Shown: positions 8,487 to 16,399 of the stretch, piece by piece
Numbering within the stretch: the stretch's first letter is position 1
Layout of the letters: every line of letters begins with the position of its first letter
NCBI GenBank assembly: GCA_037381445.1
Contig: JARRQT010000043.1
Location: forward strand, 1 to 28,664
Reading direction: 5' to 3'
Source: Calditrichia bacterium
Lineage (GTDB): Bacteria; Calditrichota; Calditrichia; RBG-13-44-9
Length of the DNA: 28,664 nucleotides
Notes under the pieces: model-generated
Databases searched by the model: none
What the model saw: only the letters and a program-made list of their open reading frames with translations
What the model was told of the DNA's origin: nothing
Made by a program: the position numbers and the translations under genes

Positions 8487-10403
8487 ATGCGCGTTTGCCG
8501 GGCATTGCAATCCCTTGCTCTGATTTCCCTTTTTCTCTGTGTCATTGACACGGGGACCGCCCAGGAATACCAGTATCTTGAAGATCTCTATGATTACAGC
8601 GATGATGAGGAATCGGAAAACCAGGACTGGCAGGAATATTTGTGGGAGCTTCTCCAGCATCCGCTGGATGTGAACCGGCTTGAACTGAATGACCTGTTAA
8701 AGATACCGTTCCTCTCTACGTCGCTTTCCCAGAATATTATAAAATACCGGAACAGCAGGAAAAATATCAGTGACCTGGATGAACTATTGCAGATCGATGG
8801 AATGGATGACGAGTTGCTGGAGACCGTGAAGCTTTTTTTGACCGTGCAGAAAAAAACCGTTCCCTCCCAGTACGTTTATCGGATGAAATCCAAATATGAA
8901 TATCCCGAGAGGGACGGCTTTTTGGAGAATGAGTACCACAATCCCTATTATCTGCAGCATCGCCTCCTGTTTGAAACAGGGGGCACGATTTCCGGCAATA
9001 TTTTATGGGAAAAGGATGCCGGAGAGACAGCTTTTAACGATTTCGCGAGCTATCACCTGCAATATCAACATCCGAAGGAATTTTTTTCCGTCATTCTGGG
9101 GGATTTTCAAATCAAGATGGGGAACGGACTCATTCTCTGGTCGCCTTACGGACAATCATTTTCCCCTGCCGCTTTTCCTGTTTTCCCGGGCCGCGGAGAA
9201 CTTATTGACGGAAACCGCTCCGCTAACGAAACCGGATATCTCAGGGGCCTCGCCTCACGGGTGAATCTCATCAGGGGCTTGCGTATGCACACCTTTTATT
9301 CCAAAAGATTTCTGGATGCCACATTAGCTGAAGATAACCTGGTGAAGAGTGTTTATTCTTCGGGCTTGCACAGAACAGAAACGGAAAAATCCAAAATTGG
9401 GGCTCTCAGAGAGATTTTATGGGGAGGAATTCTGGAGAAAAAATTTTCAACAGGATTCATCCAGTTGGGAGCCGTCAGATCTTTCCACCAGCCGACCTTT
9501 CAGAATTCAGAAAATTCGCGAATCTATTCAAACCTCTGCTACCGTTTGGATTTAGGCGAAATGACGCCAGCGGGGGAAATTGCACTGCTCGGCGGAAAAT
9601 ATCCCGCAATCAACCAAAGTCTTTATTTTTCCGGCAGAAATTTCAAATATCAGGTGCTCGGCTATTATTATCATCCGCAATTTATTTCCGTGCACGGCAG
9701 GGCCCCCGGCTCTCTAAGTCAACTGCCATCCAACCGCACTGGTACTGCATTCATTGTTAATTATAAAATTGCCTCTTCCACAAGGCTGGGCGGATCTGCC
9801 CATTTTTACCGCGCTGTCGCCGACCCGGAAGATGCAGTTTTTCTCAAAAGGGACTATTCAATCGAACTCAGTCAAAAATTTCTCAAACAGAACGTTAAGC
9901 TGCGGTTCCGGCAGAAAAACCGGGCGAATGCGGTGGAAAGCTCATTCGCTTCCGAGCAGAAGATCAATTCACTCCGCCTGGAACAACGGCTGCCGGTGAA
10001 CCGCGCGATTGGAATCCAAAACCGCCTCGAACTGCACTGGGCCAAACCGCTGGAAGAAAACAACCGTTATTACGGGATTAATTTTTTTCATCAGGTGGAC
10101 TGGAAATATCAAAAAAAGTGGCGTTTTCTGTTCAGGTGGTCCGTCTTTGACGTTCCGGATTATGCATTGAGGATTTATGAGTTCGAACCCGATCTGCCGG
10201 GGAATTTCCGAATTGTTTTACTAAACGGACGCGGATACAAATTCATGACCACCGTGCGCTGGCAGCCACTTCCGTTCGCGCAATTTGACTTCAAATACCA
10301 ACAGCGCTACTATCCGGATCTTGAAAGCGTGGGATCCGGTCTTGACCGGATTAAAACCAACCGCGTCCACGAATTCCGCATGTCAGTTGTATTGAGTCGC
10401 TGA
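8487..10403 (+). CDS. Exported helix-hairpin-helix (ComEA-like) protein with probable outer-membrane beta-barrel
   Basis: Signal peptide from ATG 8487; PLDVN..L.DLLKIPFL...IIKYR...LDELLQIDG HhH pattern; later EKDAGE, LGDF, G.GL and amphipathic aromatic-rich strands. Confidence 0.8.
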   Translation: MRVCRALQSLALISLFLCVIDTGTAQEYQYLEDLYDYSDDEESENQDWQEYLWELLQHPLDVNRLELNDLLKIPFLSTSLSQNIIKYRNSRKNISDLDELLQIDGMDDELLETVKLFLTVQKKTVPSQYVYRMKSKYEYPERDGFLENEYHNPYYLQHRLLFETGGTISGNILWEKDAGETAFNDFASYHLQYQHPKEFFSVILGDFQIKMGNGLILWSPYGQSFSPAAFPVFPGRGELIDGNRSANETGYLRGLASRVNLIRGLRMHTFYSKRFLDATLAEDNLVKSVYSSGLHRTETEKSKIGALREILWGGILEKKFSTGFIQLGAVRSFHQPTFQNSENSRIYSNLCYRLDLGEMTPAGEIALLGGKYPAINQSLYFSGRNFKYQVLGYYYHPQFISVHGRAPGSLSQLPSNRTGTAFIVNYKIASSTRLGGSAHFYRAVADPEDAVFLKRDYSIELSQKFLKQNVKLRFRQKNRANAVESSFASEQKINSLRLEQRLPVNRAIGIQNRLELHWAKPLEENNRYYGINFFHQVDWKYQKKWRFLFRWSVFDVPDYALRIYEFEPDLPGNFRIVLLNGRGYKFMTTVRWQPLPFAQFDFKYQQRYYPDLESVGSGLDRIKTNRVHEFRMSVVLSR

Positions 10404-10431
10404 CAGGATAGCTCGCAAAAAACATGTAAAT

Positions 10432-10448
10432 GCCGGCAGCCTGCCGGC
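10432..10448 (-). other. Candidate bacterial SECIS element for the FmdB gene
   Basis: mRNA GCCGGCA-GGC-UGCCGGC, perfect 7-bp stem with G-starting loop. The stem starts 13 nt after the UGA at 10464-10462 and has no adjacent U-tract. Confidence 0.6.
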
Positions 10449-10455
10449 CCAGTAA

Positions 10456-10665
10456 TCATCCTCAGGTAAAATGACCGCTTCCACCGGAGCCGCAGGAACC
10501 GCCGCCTCCCGCTGCGCTGCCACCGGCAGTGGCAAAAAGGGAAACCTGTTTTTCAGTATTGGCGCTGCCGCATTTGGGGCATTCCATTTCATTGCTTCGG
10601 GCAAATGAAACCAGTTCCTCAAATTTTTCACCGCAATCTTTGCACAAATATTCGTATAATGGCAT
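10456..10665 (-). CDS. FmdB-family zinc-ribbon protein, probable selenoprotein ending ...GHFT-U-G
   Basis: MPLYEYLCKDCG...CPKCGS signature. The TGA at 10464-10462 is followed by GGA TGA and a SECIS-like hairpin. Without recoding the CDS is 10462..10665. Confidence 0.85.
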
Positions 10666-10734
10666 ATTCAGCTATTCCTTTTTAGCACAAAAAAGTGCAG
10701 AATTTTTATATATCAACTCGATTAAATAACGATA

Positions 10735-11076
10735 TCAATCATTCGTTATTCTGGCATATGCCCGATGTTTATCCTCCAAAGCGCTTCTCAACAGCAATGA
10801 TTCCATATCTGTTAAATATTGATGATTCTCGAGTGAATTCAGCCTTTCGCTCAGAATTTTAAGCCGTGTTCCGGCAGCCTCGGAGTTTCCCTTGGCGAGC
10901 ATATCGGCCAGTTCATCCAGATCACTTTTGAATTTGTTATAAATATCGTTTCTGTCGCCCGGCACGGAGCAATAATTACCATTTGCTCCTCAGGTAGGGA
11001 CACCCAGCCTCGGCAAAATAAAAAACCAGAAAAACAGAAAGAGACTGAACAAAATTATTCCGTAATAGTCCTGCAA
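10735..11076 (-). CDS. Unannotated single-TM protein with in-frame TGA (candidate selenoprotein, 113 aa)
   Basis: GGAAGG SD, 9 nt, TTG at 11076: MQDYYGIILFSLFLFFWFFILPRLGVPT-(TGA 10992-10990)-GANGNYCS, continuing in frame into the 10735..10965 ORF (VPGDRNDIYNKF...). Confidence 0.6.
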
Positions 11077-11113
11077 AAATGCAATCCTTCCAATATCATA
11101 AGTGCTTTTTGTC

Positions 11114-11527
11114 CTAAATTCTGCCGAGATAATTCAGATATTCAATTTTCCAGCAGCGGTCCATGACCACATCCAGCCCGGCATGAAGGGCATATTCCGC
11201 GGCTGCTTCACTGACAACTCCCAGTTGCATCCAGATTGCCTTCGCACCAACTTTGACGGCCTCCTCCGCAATAGGAAGGACATATTCCGATCTTCTAAAG
11301 ATATCAACCAGGTCAACTCTTTCCGGAATTTCCGAAAGAGAAGGATAACACTTCAATCCCAGCACTTCATCTACATTCGGATTGACCGGATAGATTTGGT
11401 AACCCCGATCCTTCATAAATTTTGCGATTCTGAATGAGTCCCGGTAAGGTTTATCCGAGATTCCGACAACTGCAATTTTCCGGCAATTGTTTAATATCTC
11501 AGGAATATTTTGGTTTATTTCTTTCAT
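11114..11527 (-). CDS. CoA-binding protein (YccU family)
   Basis: IAVVGISDKPYRDS, PVNP, DLVDIFR, IWMQLG, VVMDRC; ATG 11527 preferred over TTG 11548. Confidence 0.93.
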   Translation of the reverse strand: MKEINQNIPEILNNCRKIAVVGISDKPYRDSFRIAKFMKDRGYQIYPVNPNVDEVLGLKCYPSLSEIPERVDLVDIFRRSEYVLPIAEEAVKVGAKAIWMQLGVVSEAAAEYALHAGLDVVMDRCWKIEYLNYLGRI

Positions 11528-11815
11528 GTTCGATTCTGTACCTTCCAATCAGTGCATCAACAAAAAGTTCAACAACAAATTTAGTAAGAGCTGAAACGGA
11601 AACAAATCTCATAATTTTTTCTTCCCGGTCCGACGATGGGAATTATATTCCGCTTCATACGCTTCTATATTGAACTCAATAATTGATTGCCGGAAAAGCA
11701 AATCCCGAATACACTCCAATTTGCATAAATTACAATTGATTCCGATTCTTTTTGGTTTTATCCCGATTTTTAGCTAATTTTGGGTGAATTGCAAAAAATA
11801 CAATCCGGAGAATCA

Positions 11816-14455: not shown

Positions 14456-15799
14456 ATGGATGATTCTCAAAAAATTCTGATTGTTGAAGATAGTGTCATA
14501 TGGGCGGAAAGTTACAAACGCTGGATCGGCCAGCAGCATGAGATAAAACTGGCATTCAATAAGACGGAAGCGCTTGAATACCACGAAAACTTCCGGCCGG
14601 ACCTGATTATTCTCGATCTGGGGCTTCCGCAGATCCAGGACGGTATGGATTTGCTGGACCAATTTGTAAAGCAGGGCTATGACGCTCAAATAATCGTGGT
14701 GACCTCGTTTAAGGAACATAGCTATGCTTTGGAAGCCCAGCGCCGGGGAGCGTACTCCTATTTTTCCAAAGGTGAAAATATTGAAGAGGAATTGCCCTAT
14801 CTTGTCAAACAGGCTCTGAGAATGCAGAAACTGGAACGGGAGAACAAGGACCTCCGTTCGAAATTAAAAGATCATATCAAATTTGATAACATCGTCGCCA
14901 TCAGCCAACCCATGCAAAAATTGCTTCATCTGGTGGAGAAAGTGAAGAGCAGCTCAGAGCCAATTTTGATAACCGGAGAATCCGGGGTAGGCAAAGAAGT
15001 TCTGGCAAGGCACATTTTCGATAGAAGCACTAAATTCAAACGAAATTTTGTAGCCATCAACTGTGCCGCGCTGCCGGCCAATTTGCTGGAAAGCGAGATG
15101 TTCGGATACGAAAAAGGCGCATTTACCGGTGCTGTCAAATCCACTCGCGGCAAATTTGAACTGGCCCATGAAGGAACGATATTTCTCGACGAAATTGGCG
15201 ATATGCCATCCGAACTTCAGGCAAAGCTACTGCGCGTGCTGGAAACCAAAAAGTTTTTCCGGTTGGGCGGGGAGAAAGAGATTCAGGTTGATTTCCGGTT
15301 GATCACCGCCACCAACAAGAACCTGTTGGAGCAAATCAAAGATAACAAATTCCGGGAAGACCTTTATTACCGCATCAATGTGATTCCTATGAACATTCTG
15401 CCACTGCGGGAAAGACCCGACGACATTCCCGCCATAATAAACTTCATTGTGGAAAGGTTTTGTGAGGAAAACAATATTTCAATACCCAAAATTACCAGCC
15501 GCGCTATTGCCTTCCTGGCCCATCTCCGCTGGGAGGGAAATGTGCGGGAACTGGAAAATACGGTCAAGCGCCTGATTATAACCAAATCGGATTACATCGA
15601 TCTCCCGGACTTACCCCCGGATATCATTGAAGAATCGGAAAGTTTTCTGGATAAGGCGCTGGCCAATGAACTGACCCTGGAAGAAGTTTCAAAACTCTAT
15701 ACCAAAATGGTTTTGGAACTGAAAAAGGGCAATAAAAAGGAAGCCTGCAAGCTTCTTAACATCAATTACCGGACATTAATGAGCAAATTAAACGGTTAA
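14456..15799 (+). CDS. Sigma-54-dependent response regulator (NtrC family)
   Basis: Intact receiver (VED, LDLGLP, K), Walker A GESGVGKE, GAFTGA, FLDEIG, FREDLYYRI, GNVREL and Fis-type HTH. Confidence 0.96.
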   Translation: MDDSQKILIVEDSVIWAESYKRWIGQQHEIKLAFNKTEALEYHENFRPDLIILDLGLPQIQDGMDLLDQFVKQGYDAQIIVVTSFKEHSYALEAQRRGAYSYFSKGENIEEELPYLVKQALRMQKLERENKDLRSKLKDHIKFDNIVAISQPMQKLLHLVEKVKSSSEPILITGESGVGKEVLARHIFDRSTKFKRNFVAINCAALPANLLESEMFGYEKGAFTGAVKSTRGKFELAHEGTIFLDEIGDMPSELQAKLLRVLETKKFFRLGGEKEIQVDFRLITATNKNLLEQIKDNKFREDLYYRINVIPMNILPLRERPDDIPAIINFIVERFCEENNISIPKITSRAIAFLAHLRWEGNVRELENTVKRLIITKSDYIDLPDLPPDIIEESESFLDKALANELTLEEVSKLYTKMVLELKKGNKKEACKLLNINYRTLMSKLNG

Positions 15800-16024: not shown

Positions 16025-16399
16025 ATGAAAGTTCTTGTTTACGAAACCAGCAAAGACAGAGCAAAACTTATTCAGGATTTATTGGGGAGTTACCGGTATA
16101 AAGTATTCTGCAAATACGATAATGACTCGTCCATGAACGATATTCTCGAAATTAAACCTTCTCTCATTATTATGAACGTGAATCATCGGTCTCATTTTGA
16201 ACTGTTAGATAAGTTAAAGAAACACAGCCGGCTTTCACAAATCCCGATTATCCTGATTTCAAACTTTAACTCCAAGGAAATTATTGAAAAAATCAGCCAA
16301 TTGCCGAACGTAGATTATCTCGTGGAGCCTTTTAAAATCAAGAATTTTAGGCACATGGTAGAGCGTTGGATTACATTCAGGAGCCTTTACGTAAACTAA
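16025..16399 (+). CDS. Atypical stand-alone receiver-domain protein lacking the phosphoacceptor Asp
   Basis: CheY-like pattern (KVLVYE, KPSLIIMNV, IPIILIS, DYLVEPF); GGAGG SD. Confidence 0.85.
   Translation: MKVLVYETSKDRAKLIQDLLGSYRYKVFCKYDNDSSMNDILEIKPSLIIMNVNHRSHFELLDKLKKHSRLSQIPIILISNFNSKEIIEKISQLPNVDYLVEPFKIKNFRHMVERWITFRSLYVN

Follow-up and report, generated by a model that had tools for sequence, protein, structure and literature searches.

Three small genes follow one another on the minus strand of a 28,664-nt stretch of contig JARRQT010000043.1 from a Calditrichia bacterium (the whole stretch is called the window below), and each of the last two carries an in-frame UGA codon. The locus raises the question of whether both codons are read as selenocysteine (Sec) and, if so, whether the two products act together and with the CoA-binding protein encoded ahead of them. 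A sequence-only reading of the window had proposed that the three genes form one module in thiol/CoA redox or metal handling.

Layout of the locus

The coordinates in Table 1 confirm the three small, co-oriented genes with gaps of 37 and 69 bp that had been described, and a terminator scan gave no terminator-like site between them. The identification of the first gene as coding for a YccU-type CoA-binding protein was borne out over its whole length: PF13380 covers profile positions 1-115 of 116, and the protein is close to the solved CoA-binding-domain proteins PDB 2duw, 2d59, and 1iuk. The pairing of a membrane Sec protein with a soluble Zn ribbon was also supported, since gene 2 codes for a predicted one-helix membrane protein and gene 3 for a zinc ribbon of the FmdB family. 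The ribbon cysteines C8, C11, C29, and C32 of the latter form two CxxC motifs and are invariant, being Cys in 19 of 19 aligned FmdBs. The FmdB tail has no CxxU; its predicted Sec is the next-to-last residue of a Gly/Ser tail, and Cys58 is present.

The sequence-only reading had stressed that both UGA codons show T-TGA-GGA, a nearby Cys and a downstream hairpin, a combination judged less likely by chance than either site alone. Both sites do read ACC-TGA-GGA, but the GGA is not conserved in gene 2, in whose relatives the residue after the UGA is T, G, T, E, Q, N or R. A Cys lies near each UGA as claimed, seven residues after U in gene 2 and ten residues before U in FmdB. In the window alone the hairpins were no better than shuffles (z -0.37 to +0.23), so single-sequence folding was rejected as hairpin evidence, and the support beyond chance comes from the relatives. 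The Rfam SECIS family had no match within 10300-11700.

Table 1. Features of the locus in the window, and other predicted Sec genes of the same genome (G000).
Feature	Position	Strand	Remarks
CoA-binding-domain gene (YccU-like, stand-alone, 137 aa)	11114..11527	-	PF13380 144 bits, cut-off 22.8
Gene 2, predicted one-helix membrane selenoprotein, 113 aa read through	10735..11076	-	TTG start 11076
Predicted parts of the gene 2 product			TM helix ~3-24, U29, C36, three-helix domain ~41-112
In-frame TGA of gene 2, predicted Sec29	10990..10992	-	Codon 29
SECIS-like hairpin of gene 2, conserved	10955..10972	-	Loop C-GUG-NN, 23 nt after UGA; Cys36 codon in 5' arm
Competing hairpin directly after UGA of gene 2, not conserved	10966..10989	-	
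FmdB-family zinc-ribbon gene, predicted 69 aa, end F-T-U-G	10456..10665	-	ATG 10665; TIGR02605 65.1 bits, cut-off 31.3
In-frame TGA of FmdB, predicted penultimate Sec68	10462..10464	-	Codon 68; then Gly, TGA stop 10458-10456
SECIS-like hairpin in FmdB 3' untranslated region	10432..10448	-	7 bp stem, loop GGC, 20 nt after UGA
Sec gene, Prx	G000:C335:1498-1896		
Sec gene, OsmC-like	G000:C77:19885-20163		
Sec gene, presumably Grx-like	G000:C77 near 16416		
Sec gene, presumably SelW-like	G000:C9	-	

Probable recoding of the two genes in relatives

Comparison with relatives makes the suspected recoding of both UGA codons very probable, and we hold with high confidence that both genes are recoded in the lineage. 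For FmdB, 86 Calditrichota genomes were searched, the first survey covering the best 30 loci from 61 genomes. Each of these 30 loci has TGA as its first stop, and beyond it lie one or two small residues and a varied stop (16 TAA, 8 TGA, and 6 TAG). As a control, the CoA genes of these loci had a TGA stop in 1 of 20 cases; TGA makes up 0.35 of long-ORF stops in this genome. A profile search of all 86 genomes returned 33 FmdB matches, namely the 30 above, two with an identical ending and one frameshifted, and every intact copy in the phylum, 32 of 32, has TGA at the site. The frameshifted FmdB copy lies behind the CoA gene in L388 (G004:C5:8818).

The FmdB hairpin was aligned over 22 of the 30 downstream regions; the eight of family f4, which have a longer C-GUG loop, were excluded. 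In these 22 sequences it was 95.5% paired, both sides change at 7 of 7 pairs, and none of 500 shuffles equalled it; slid controls were 19-57% paired. Its energy of -13.4 kcal/mol lies within the bSECIS limit of at most -7.5 kcal/mol, and its loop GGC at 20 nt and stem of 7 bp agree with the bSECIS consensus model as given in the accessible part of PMC13188914. A Cys form of the tail was found in none of 15 protein hits, and none of the 122 metagenome pattern matches listed had a zinc ribbon. A tail pattern run on the phylum of G088 was set aside, since its matches were about as frequent as those of its control. The tail form was not found in 10 of 10 f5 genomes, which have no selA over the cut-off, nor in 26 of 26 f6 genomes, 24 of which have selA, so that the co-occurrence of the FmdB tail with selA in the phylum (over the cut-off in 51 of 61 genomes searched) is confounded by lineage. 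Co-occurrence with selABCD had been suggested as a check on the module; with selA it was seen for the gene 2 family in an outside class (see below).

Gene 2 occurs in the phylum as a long form in six genomes and a short form in three. In all nine Calditrichales copies inspected, the site is TGA, the reading frame continues beyond it and a Cys follows after six to seven residues, and the coding score of the gene 2 frame past the UGA was 0.19, compared with -1.0 and -1.3 in the other frames. The hairpin at 10972-10955 had 97.5% of cells paired in 8 sequences (22 of 500 shuffles were as high), with a compensatory change at two pairs. Its geometry agrees with the bSECIS model (loop CGUGCC at 23 nt, 5-6 bp); the energy of the region, -6.0 kcal/mol here, is weaker than the criterion of -7.5 kcal/mol, and in the relatives it was -4.3 to -6.8 in 5 of 6 folded and -13.5 in one. 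The hairpin at 10989-10966 is the strongest locally, but it was 56.6% paired, with 162 of 500 shuffles as high, and was rejected as the SECIS of gene 2. Folding without the first 8-13 nt frees the SECIS-like arms, and a ribosome at the UGA would be expected to cover the 5' arm of the competing hairpin and so to free them in the same way.

The structure model of gene 2 (pLDDT 76.5) has a helix at 3-24, a low-confidence linker with U and C, and helices at 41-112. A fold search with this model gave nothing at E 0.001 and only generic helical bundles. An Atlas search returned one unnamed cluster at 0.88, which we take as a lead only. The N-terminal 44 residues had no match in a single-protein search, and a profile search of representatives returned mainly C-terminal pieces and one Cys form. 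No curated family in NCBIfam or Pfam scored over the cut-off with gene 2 or its membrane part; colicin Z and ParE, at E 0.05-0.08, fell far short of it and were put down to chance. No copy outside this Calditrichales family was seen to have the added three-helix domain.

The membrane part, by contrast with this domain, belongs to a wide family with the motif P-x-x-G-x-x-T-U-x4-6-C, the spacing being U-x4-C in most phyla and U-x6-C in the window. A pattern scan on the residues before the UGA gave at least 119 loci in many phyla; those listed are from Desulfobacterota, Nitrospirota, Acidobacteriota, Planctomycetota, Chloroflexota, KSB1, Spirochaetota, and others, and the named species with copies include Geomobilimonas luticola, Pelotalea chapellei, and Geobacter sp. 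OR-1. The pattern demanded TGA, so the TGA in the listed loci is no test. It did not demand the upstream hydrophobic stretch that was seen on inspection in all 119 listed loci (two clipped by the locus edge), nor the open frame of 14-140 codons behind the UGA. A Cys stands at U+5 in 89 of the 119 and is missing within 12 residues after U in 23, and a G-loop hairpin is present in 109, compared with 18.7% of codon shuffles. In the 102 of 119 listed members scored for charge, mean K+R was 0.2 in the first five residues and 4.1 past the helix, and these flanking charges suggest an N-out/C-in topology. When 10 typical members were compared with NCBIfam, the sole match was the fused thioredoxin of L084, and 41 members gave only two single, weak and unrelated hits against Pfam at E 0.01. 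The fusion (L084:1435-1950) joins the membrane Sec peptide in-frame with a full thioredoxin.

The relation between this family and selA was followed in the class around G086 (labelled Pirellulales), where 151 genomes were covered by a profile search that made no demand for TGA. The family is present in 46 of them. Among 35 matches with an internal TGA, the 22 inspected all had it at the site, 12 were uninspected, and one pseudogene (G138, TGG) was left out; all 12 stop-free matches have TGC or TGT at the site. A search for selA had hits in 32 of the 34 genomes with TGA copies, compared with none of the 11 genomes that have Cys copies only. This tally, like the others here, overstates the evidence because kin are not independent, and any p value would be inflated. 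In the two exceptions, G182 (L197) and G219 (L204), neither selA nor selB was matched, and their TGA copies group beside Cys forms in a poorly resolved tree. The tree of 52 family members, likewise poorly resolved, gives 4-5 U/C changes, and a single origin is possible. The pseudogene of G138 is locus L227. G226 has selA and both forms, with the Sec and Cys copies 10 kb apart (G226:C11:4016-4138 and 14489-14605). A SECIS-like hairpin is still found on the Cys-form gene of L185 in the selA-less genome G186, suggesting a recent U-to-C change.

Neighbourhood of the predicted Sec genes

Conserved synteny had been put forward as a check on the three-gene module. It was found for the two Sec genes, which are neighbours across phyla, and did not extend to the CoA-binding gene, whose link to them is confined to the lineage. 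An FmdB gene lies within 1.5 kb of the membrane gene in 19 of 80 listed loci, compared with 1 of 30 unrelated loci, and within 0.3 kb in 4 of 39 other listed loci; in the G086 class 0 of 30 loci have one nearby. Among the 23 neighbouring FmdBs, 22 share the strand of the membrane gene, and the TGA tail is present in 21; the exceptions are one truncated opposite-strand copy and one clipped by the locus end. The two genes are repeatedly found side by side on one strand, in either order, the phyla being Desulfobacterota, Acidobacteriota, KSB1, Chloroflexota, and Calditrichota. The pair is not obligatory, as 61 of the 80 listed loci have no nearby FmdB, and within the phylum the membrane gene stands beside FmdB in 9 of 30 FmdB loci and is missing in 21.

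The CoA-binding gene is ahead of FmdB in 19 of 30 phylum loci and in G033, and is absent from 11 of 30; none lies by FmdB in any of the eight f4 loci, nor in G009, G029, and G005. It was found in 0 of 149 outside loci (the 119 listed pattern loci and 30 of the G086 class). All three genes occur together in 8 of 86 genomes, namely G000, G001, G006, G008, G010, G012, and G015, and in another order G035; G002 has the CoA gene and gene 2 without FmdB. These counts do not support the proposal that the CoA-binding protein is a core part of the module. The window's flanks (an HhH-domain gene and mazG) enclose a Sec-tailed FmdB in L231 (G009:C11), where no CoA gene was detected, so the flanks outlast that neighbour.

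Around the membrane gene, the recurring neighbours in the 80 listed loci were ArsR regulators (14), a mostly thioredoxin/TlpA-type cluster (9), and ECF sigma factors (8). Of the 157 nearest ORFs, 89 were compared with Pfam; these included DUF302, OsmC, CcdA-type, rubrerythrin, hybrid-cluster protein, CsoR, and Fur, and many of the scanned neighbours were unrelated housekeeping genes. Several arrangements recur among individual loci. L081, L085, and L089 share a cluster in which DUF6132 and, in two of these loci, DUF302 accompany the membrane Sec gene and a Sec-tailed FmdB. In L076, L095, and L125 an ArsR regulator and the membrane Sec gene are followed about 330 nt on by a Sec-tailed FmdB, and the U+5 Cys is missing. 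In the Nitrospirota loci L067, L071, L100, L112, L139, and L145, the membrane Sec gene comes right behind putative rpoA and rplQ, at the end of a ribosomal-protein operon.

Decoding, function and related systems

In this genome selD is over the cut-off and of the Cys type. SelD is encoded in one 623-codon open frame (G000:C191:5001-6770, minus strand, L005), possibly as a fusion, and the stretch ahead of it is presumably cysteine-desulfurase-like. selA is split across two contig ends, and selB (G000:C140:15630-17472, minus strand) is about 32 codons short compared with two relatives, with a frameshift at an A-run near 16300, before the C-terminal part; this frameshift is likely an assembly error. 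tRNA-Sec was not found in this assembly (401 contigs, 92% completeness), and 15 of 20 relatives have a strong match (E under 1e-12). Four Sec genes of known families (Table 1) are intact and have G-loop hairpins. Prx and the OsmC-like gene were found by family search, and the other two were located by motif and are taken by us to be SelW-like (CxxU) and Grx-like (UxxC). Genome-wide UGA screens were mostly noise, and only matches to known families or motifs were kept.

Two explanations set aside recoding, in general or in this strain. If both UGAs were plain stops, gene 2 would be a 28-aa peptide with a separate 76-aa gene starting from GTG 10965, and the FmdB hairpin would be a terminator. Database entries of 67-aa, 29-aa, and 76-aa pieces agree with this, as do the TGA kept in two genomes that lack selA and selB and the FmdB hairpin of G005, which leads directly into a T tract. 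However, the explanation is very improbable in view of the strict TGA (1 of 20 in the control), the Cys at the equivalent site where selA is missing, and a hairpin loop and spacing that are fixed relative to the UGA. Moreover, the terminator scan was negative here, two of three short forms keep the GTG and have no domain after it, and the GTG here is not preceded at normal spacing by a Shine-Dalgarno-like site. A separate question is whether the lineage recodes and this strain has lost the ability, leaving the genes as recent relics. The frameshifted selB, the split selA, and the missing tRNA-Sec would fit such a loss, but the fragmentation and completeness of the assembly, selD over the cut-off, the frames and hairpins retained by four other Sec genes, and the tRNA-Sec of most relatives make it somewhat unlikely. 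Recoding in the lineage is thus the reading we retain, and it is probably functional in this strain as well.

The explanation that we favour, at slightly better than an even chance, is that both genes code for selenoproteins made by way of ordinary SelB and SECIS elements and likely engaged in one thiol-redox process, the CoA gene being a lineage-only neighbour. The UGA of each gene would be read as Sec through SelB and the G-loop hairpin. Gene 2 is predicted to be N-out/C-in, which would place the U-x6-C pair at the cytoplasmic membrane face. C-terminal selenol arms reach partner thiols, and Cys58 and the penultimate Sec of FmdB may do so on their flexible Gly/Ser tail. On this reading both proteins would most likely serve as small selenol/thiol carriers of reducing equivalents or sulfane sulfur, and the transfer would run between soluble thioredoxin-type reductants and membrane targets under thiol or oxidative stress. 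That the two Sec proteins share a process is fairly likely. A relay role is likely as far as motifs and neighbouring genes can tell, and we give redox relay as the actual chemistry an even chance. A more specific version is unlikely as a whole, namely a two-Sec relay in many phyla, in which an anchor of about 50 residues with a cytoplasm-facing Sec, an analogue of SELENOK/S, is served directly by a Sec-tipped FmdB with a swinging tail and is coupled in Calditrichales to CoA thiol chemistry through the CoA-binding protein and the extra three-helix domain.

Other functions were considered for the same two proteins. Binding and hand-over of metals or metalloids (Zn, Cu, As, Hg) instead of a redox relay is suggested by the zinc-ribbon fold, by the neighbours ArsR, CsoR, Fur, and ArsP-HMA, and by the accessible part of PMC13188914, in which Sec is a possible metal ligand in several predicted families; it appears improbable because thiol-redox genes are commoner than metal transporters among the 89 scanned neighbours and one copy (L084) is fused to thioredoxin. 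Just as improbable in our view is that the two selenoproteins have unrelated jobs and that small Sec genes merely gather under shared promoters. Each gene is often alone and gene order varies, as would be expected in that case, but same-strand adjacency recurs in five phyla in both orders, and the neighbour is nearly always an FmdB with the TGA tail (21 of 23, listed loci). The idea that both Sec proteins receive CoA or CoA-(per)sulfide from the CoA-binding protein, or that it senses these for them, draws on the CoA gene ahead of FmdB in 19 of 30 loci and G033, on the two gene orders in two families, and on G002, which retains the CoA gene and gene 2 without FmdB. It is more doubtful still, given 0 of 149 listed loci outside the phylum, the missing CoA gene by FmdB in 8 of 8 f4 loci, G009, G029, and G005, and local synteny that is explained by shared ancestry. 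A thiol-redox process shared by the two Sec proteins therefore remains our preferred reading.

The FmdB family has been linked to selenium before. A putative regulatory selenoprotein of this family, with CxxU/UxxU and two marine sequences, was reported from GOS reads in the accessible text of Zhang and Gladyshev (2008, PMC2398784), and TIGR02605 is entered as UxxU in Table 1 of PMC13188914, as far as the table is available. The FmdB of the window shares with the GOS protein the TIGR02605 family, a UGA-encoded Sec, and a bacterial SECIS. Unlike that protein, it has four intact ribbon Cys, a penultimate Sec, and a SECIS beyond the true stop. The FmdB of PMC11227280 was set aside as a relative, being an unrelated dehydrogenase subunit according to the accessible part of that paper. 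Terminal or near-terminal Sec is also described for SaoC and KCU-star/DUF466 in the accessible text of Haft and Gwadz (10.1101/2022.07.06.499078), where PGAP is stated to be unable to predict C-terminal Sec, and for the UXX-star families in the available table of PMC13188914. Like SaoC and KCU-star, the FmdB gene has a UGA beside the real stop and a 7-bp G-loop stem in its 3' untranslated region, and gene callers cut it short. In contrast to SaoC, KCU-star, and UXX-star, the proteins here have other folds and motifs and no Cys-Sec dipeptide, and neither matches these families in NCBIfam. For the CoA-binding protein, an ordinary full-length member of PF13380 with predicted CoA binding, nothing was found that sets it apart from other YccU-like genes, and the link to Sec genes is confined to Calditrichales.

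SELENOK and SELENOS are eukaryotic single-pass membrane proteins with Sec in a disordered segment. The membrane protein resembles them in its one membrane helix and in a Sec within a disordered segment that is predicted to be cytoplasmic, which is an analogy and not membership; it differs in its length of about 50 residues, in a Sec that is just past the helix and not C-terminal, and in its in-frame bacterial SECIS. No Pfam match to SELENOK or SELENOS was found in 41 members. Operons with several selenoproteins, such as grdA-grdB, prdB-prdC, Prx with a SELENOW-like gene, SAO, and Tso, are collected in the accessible part of section 9 of PMC13188914. The pair described here is similar in that co-oriented Sec genes are retained together across lineages. 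It differs in being looser (about a quarter of listed loci), in having no known enzyme, and in not being named in the accessible part of that section.

A count of 119 prokaryotic selenoprotein families and subfamilies is given in a 2026 review (PMC13188914, accessible part), and neither form appears in its table as far as this is readable. Neither of the two forms, nor their pairing, was found described in the searchable literature, including the accessible parts of PMC12013277 and PMC13326102; the BSepDB list and Haft and Tolstoy 2025 (mSystems) lie beyond the reach of that search. The literature search also returned no mechanistic paper on FmdB-type zinc ribbons, and the recurring pair of Sec genes is a first functional handle on them. 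The decoding mechanism itself is ordinary. The membrane family offers a clean Sec/Cys pair tied to the presence of selA, which is testable in the named species.

A profile search of the database gave 689 proteins of the membrane family, most of those listed being cut at 29 residues, so that the selenoproteomes of many bacteria are undercounted. In the 121 of these that were examined, 77 end at the site and 26 have Cys, 17 Trp, and 1 Arg. The Trp at the Sec site of P0028 and 16 others is probably TGA read as Trp by gene callers.
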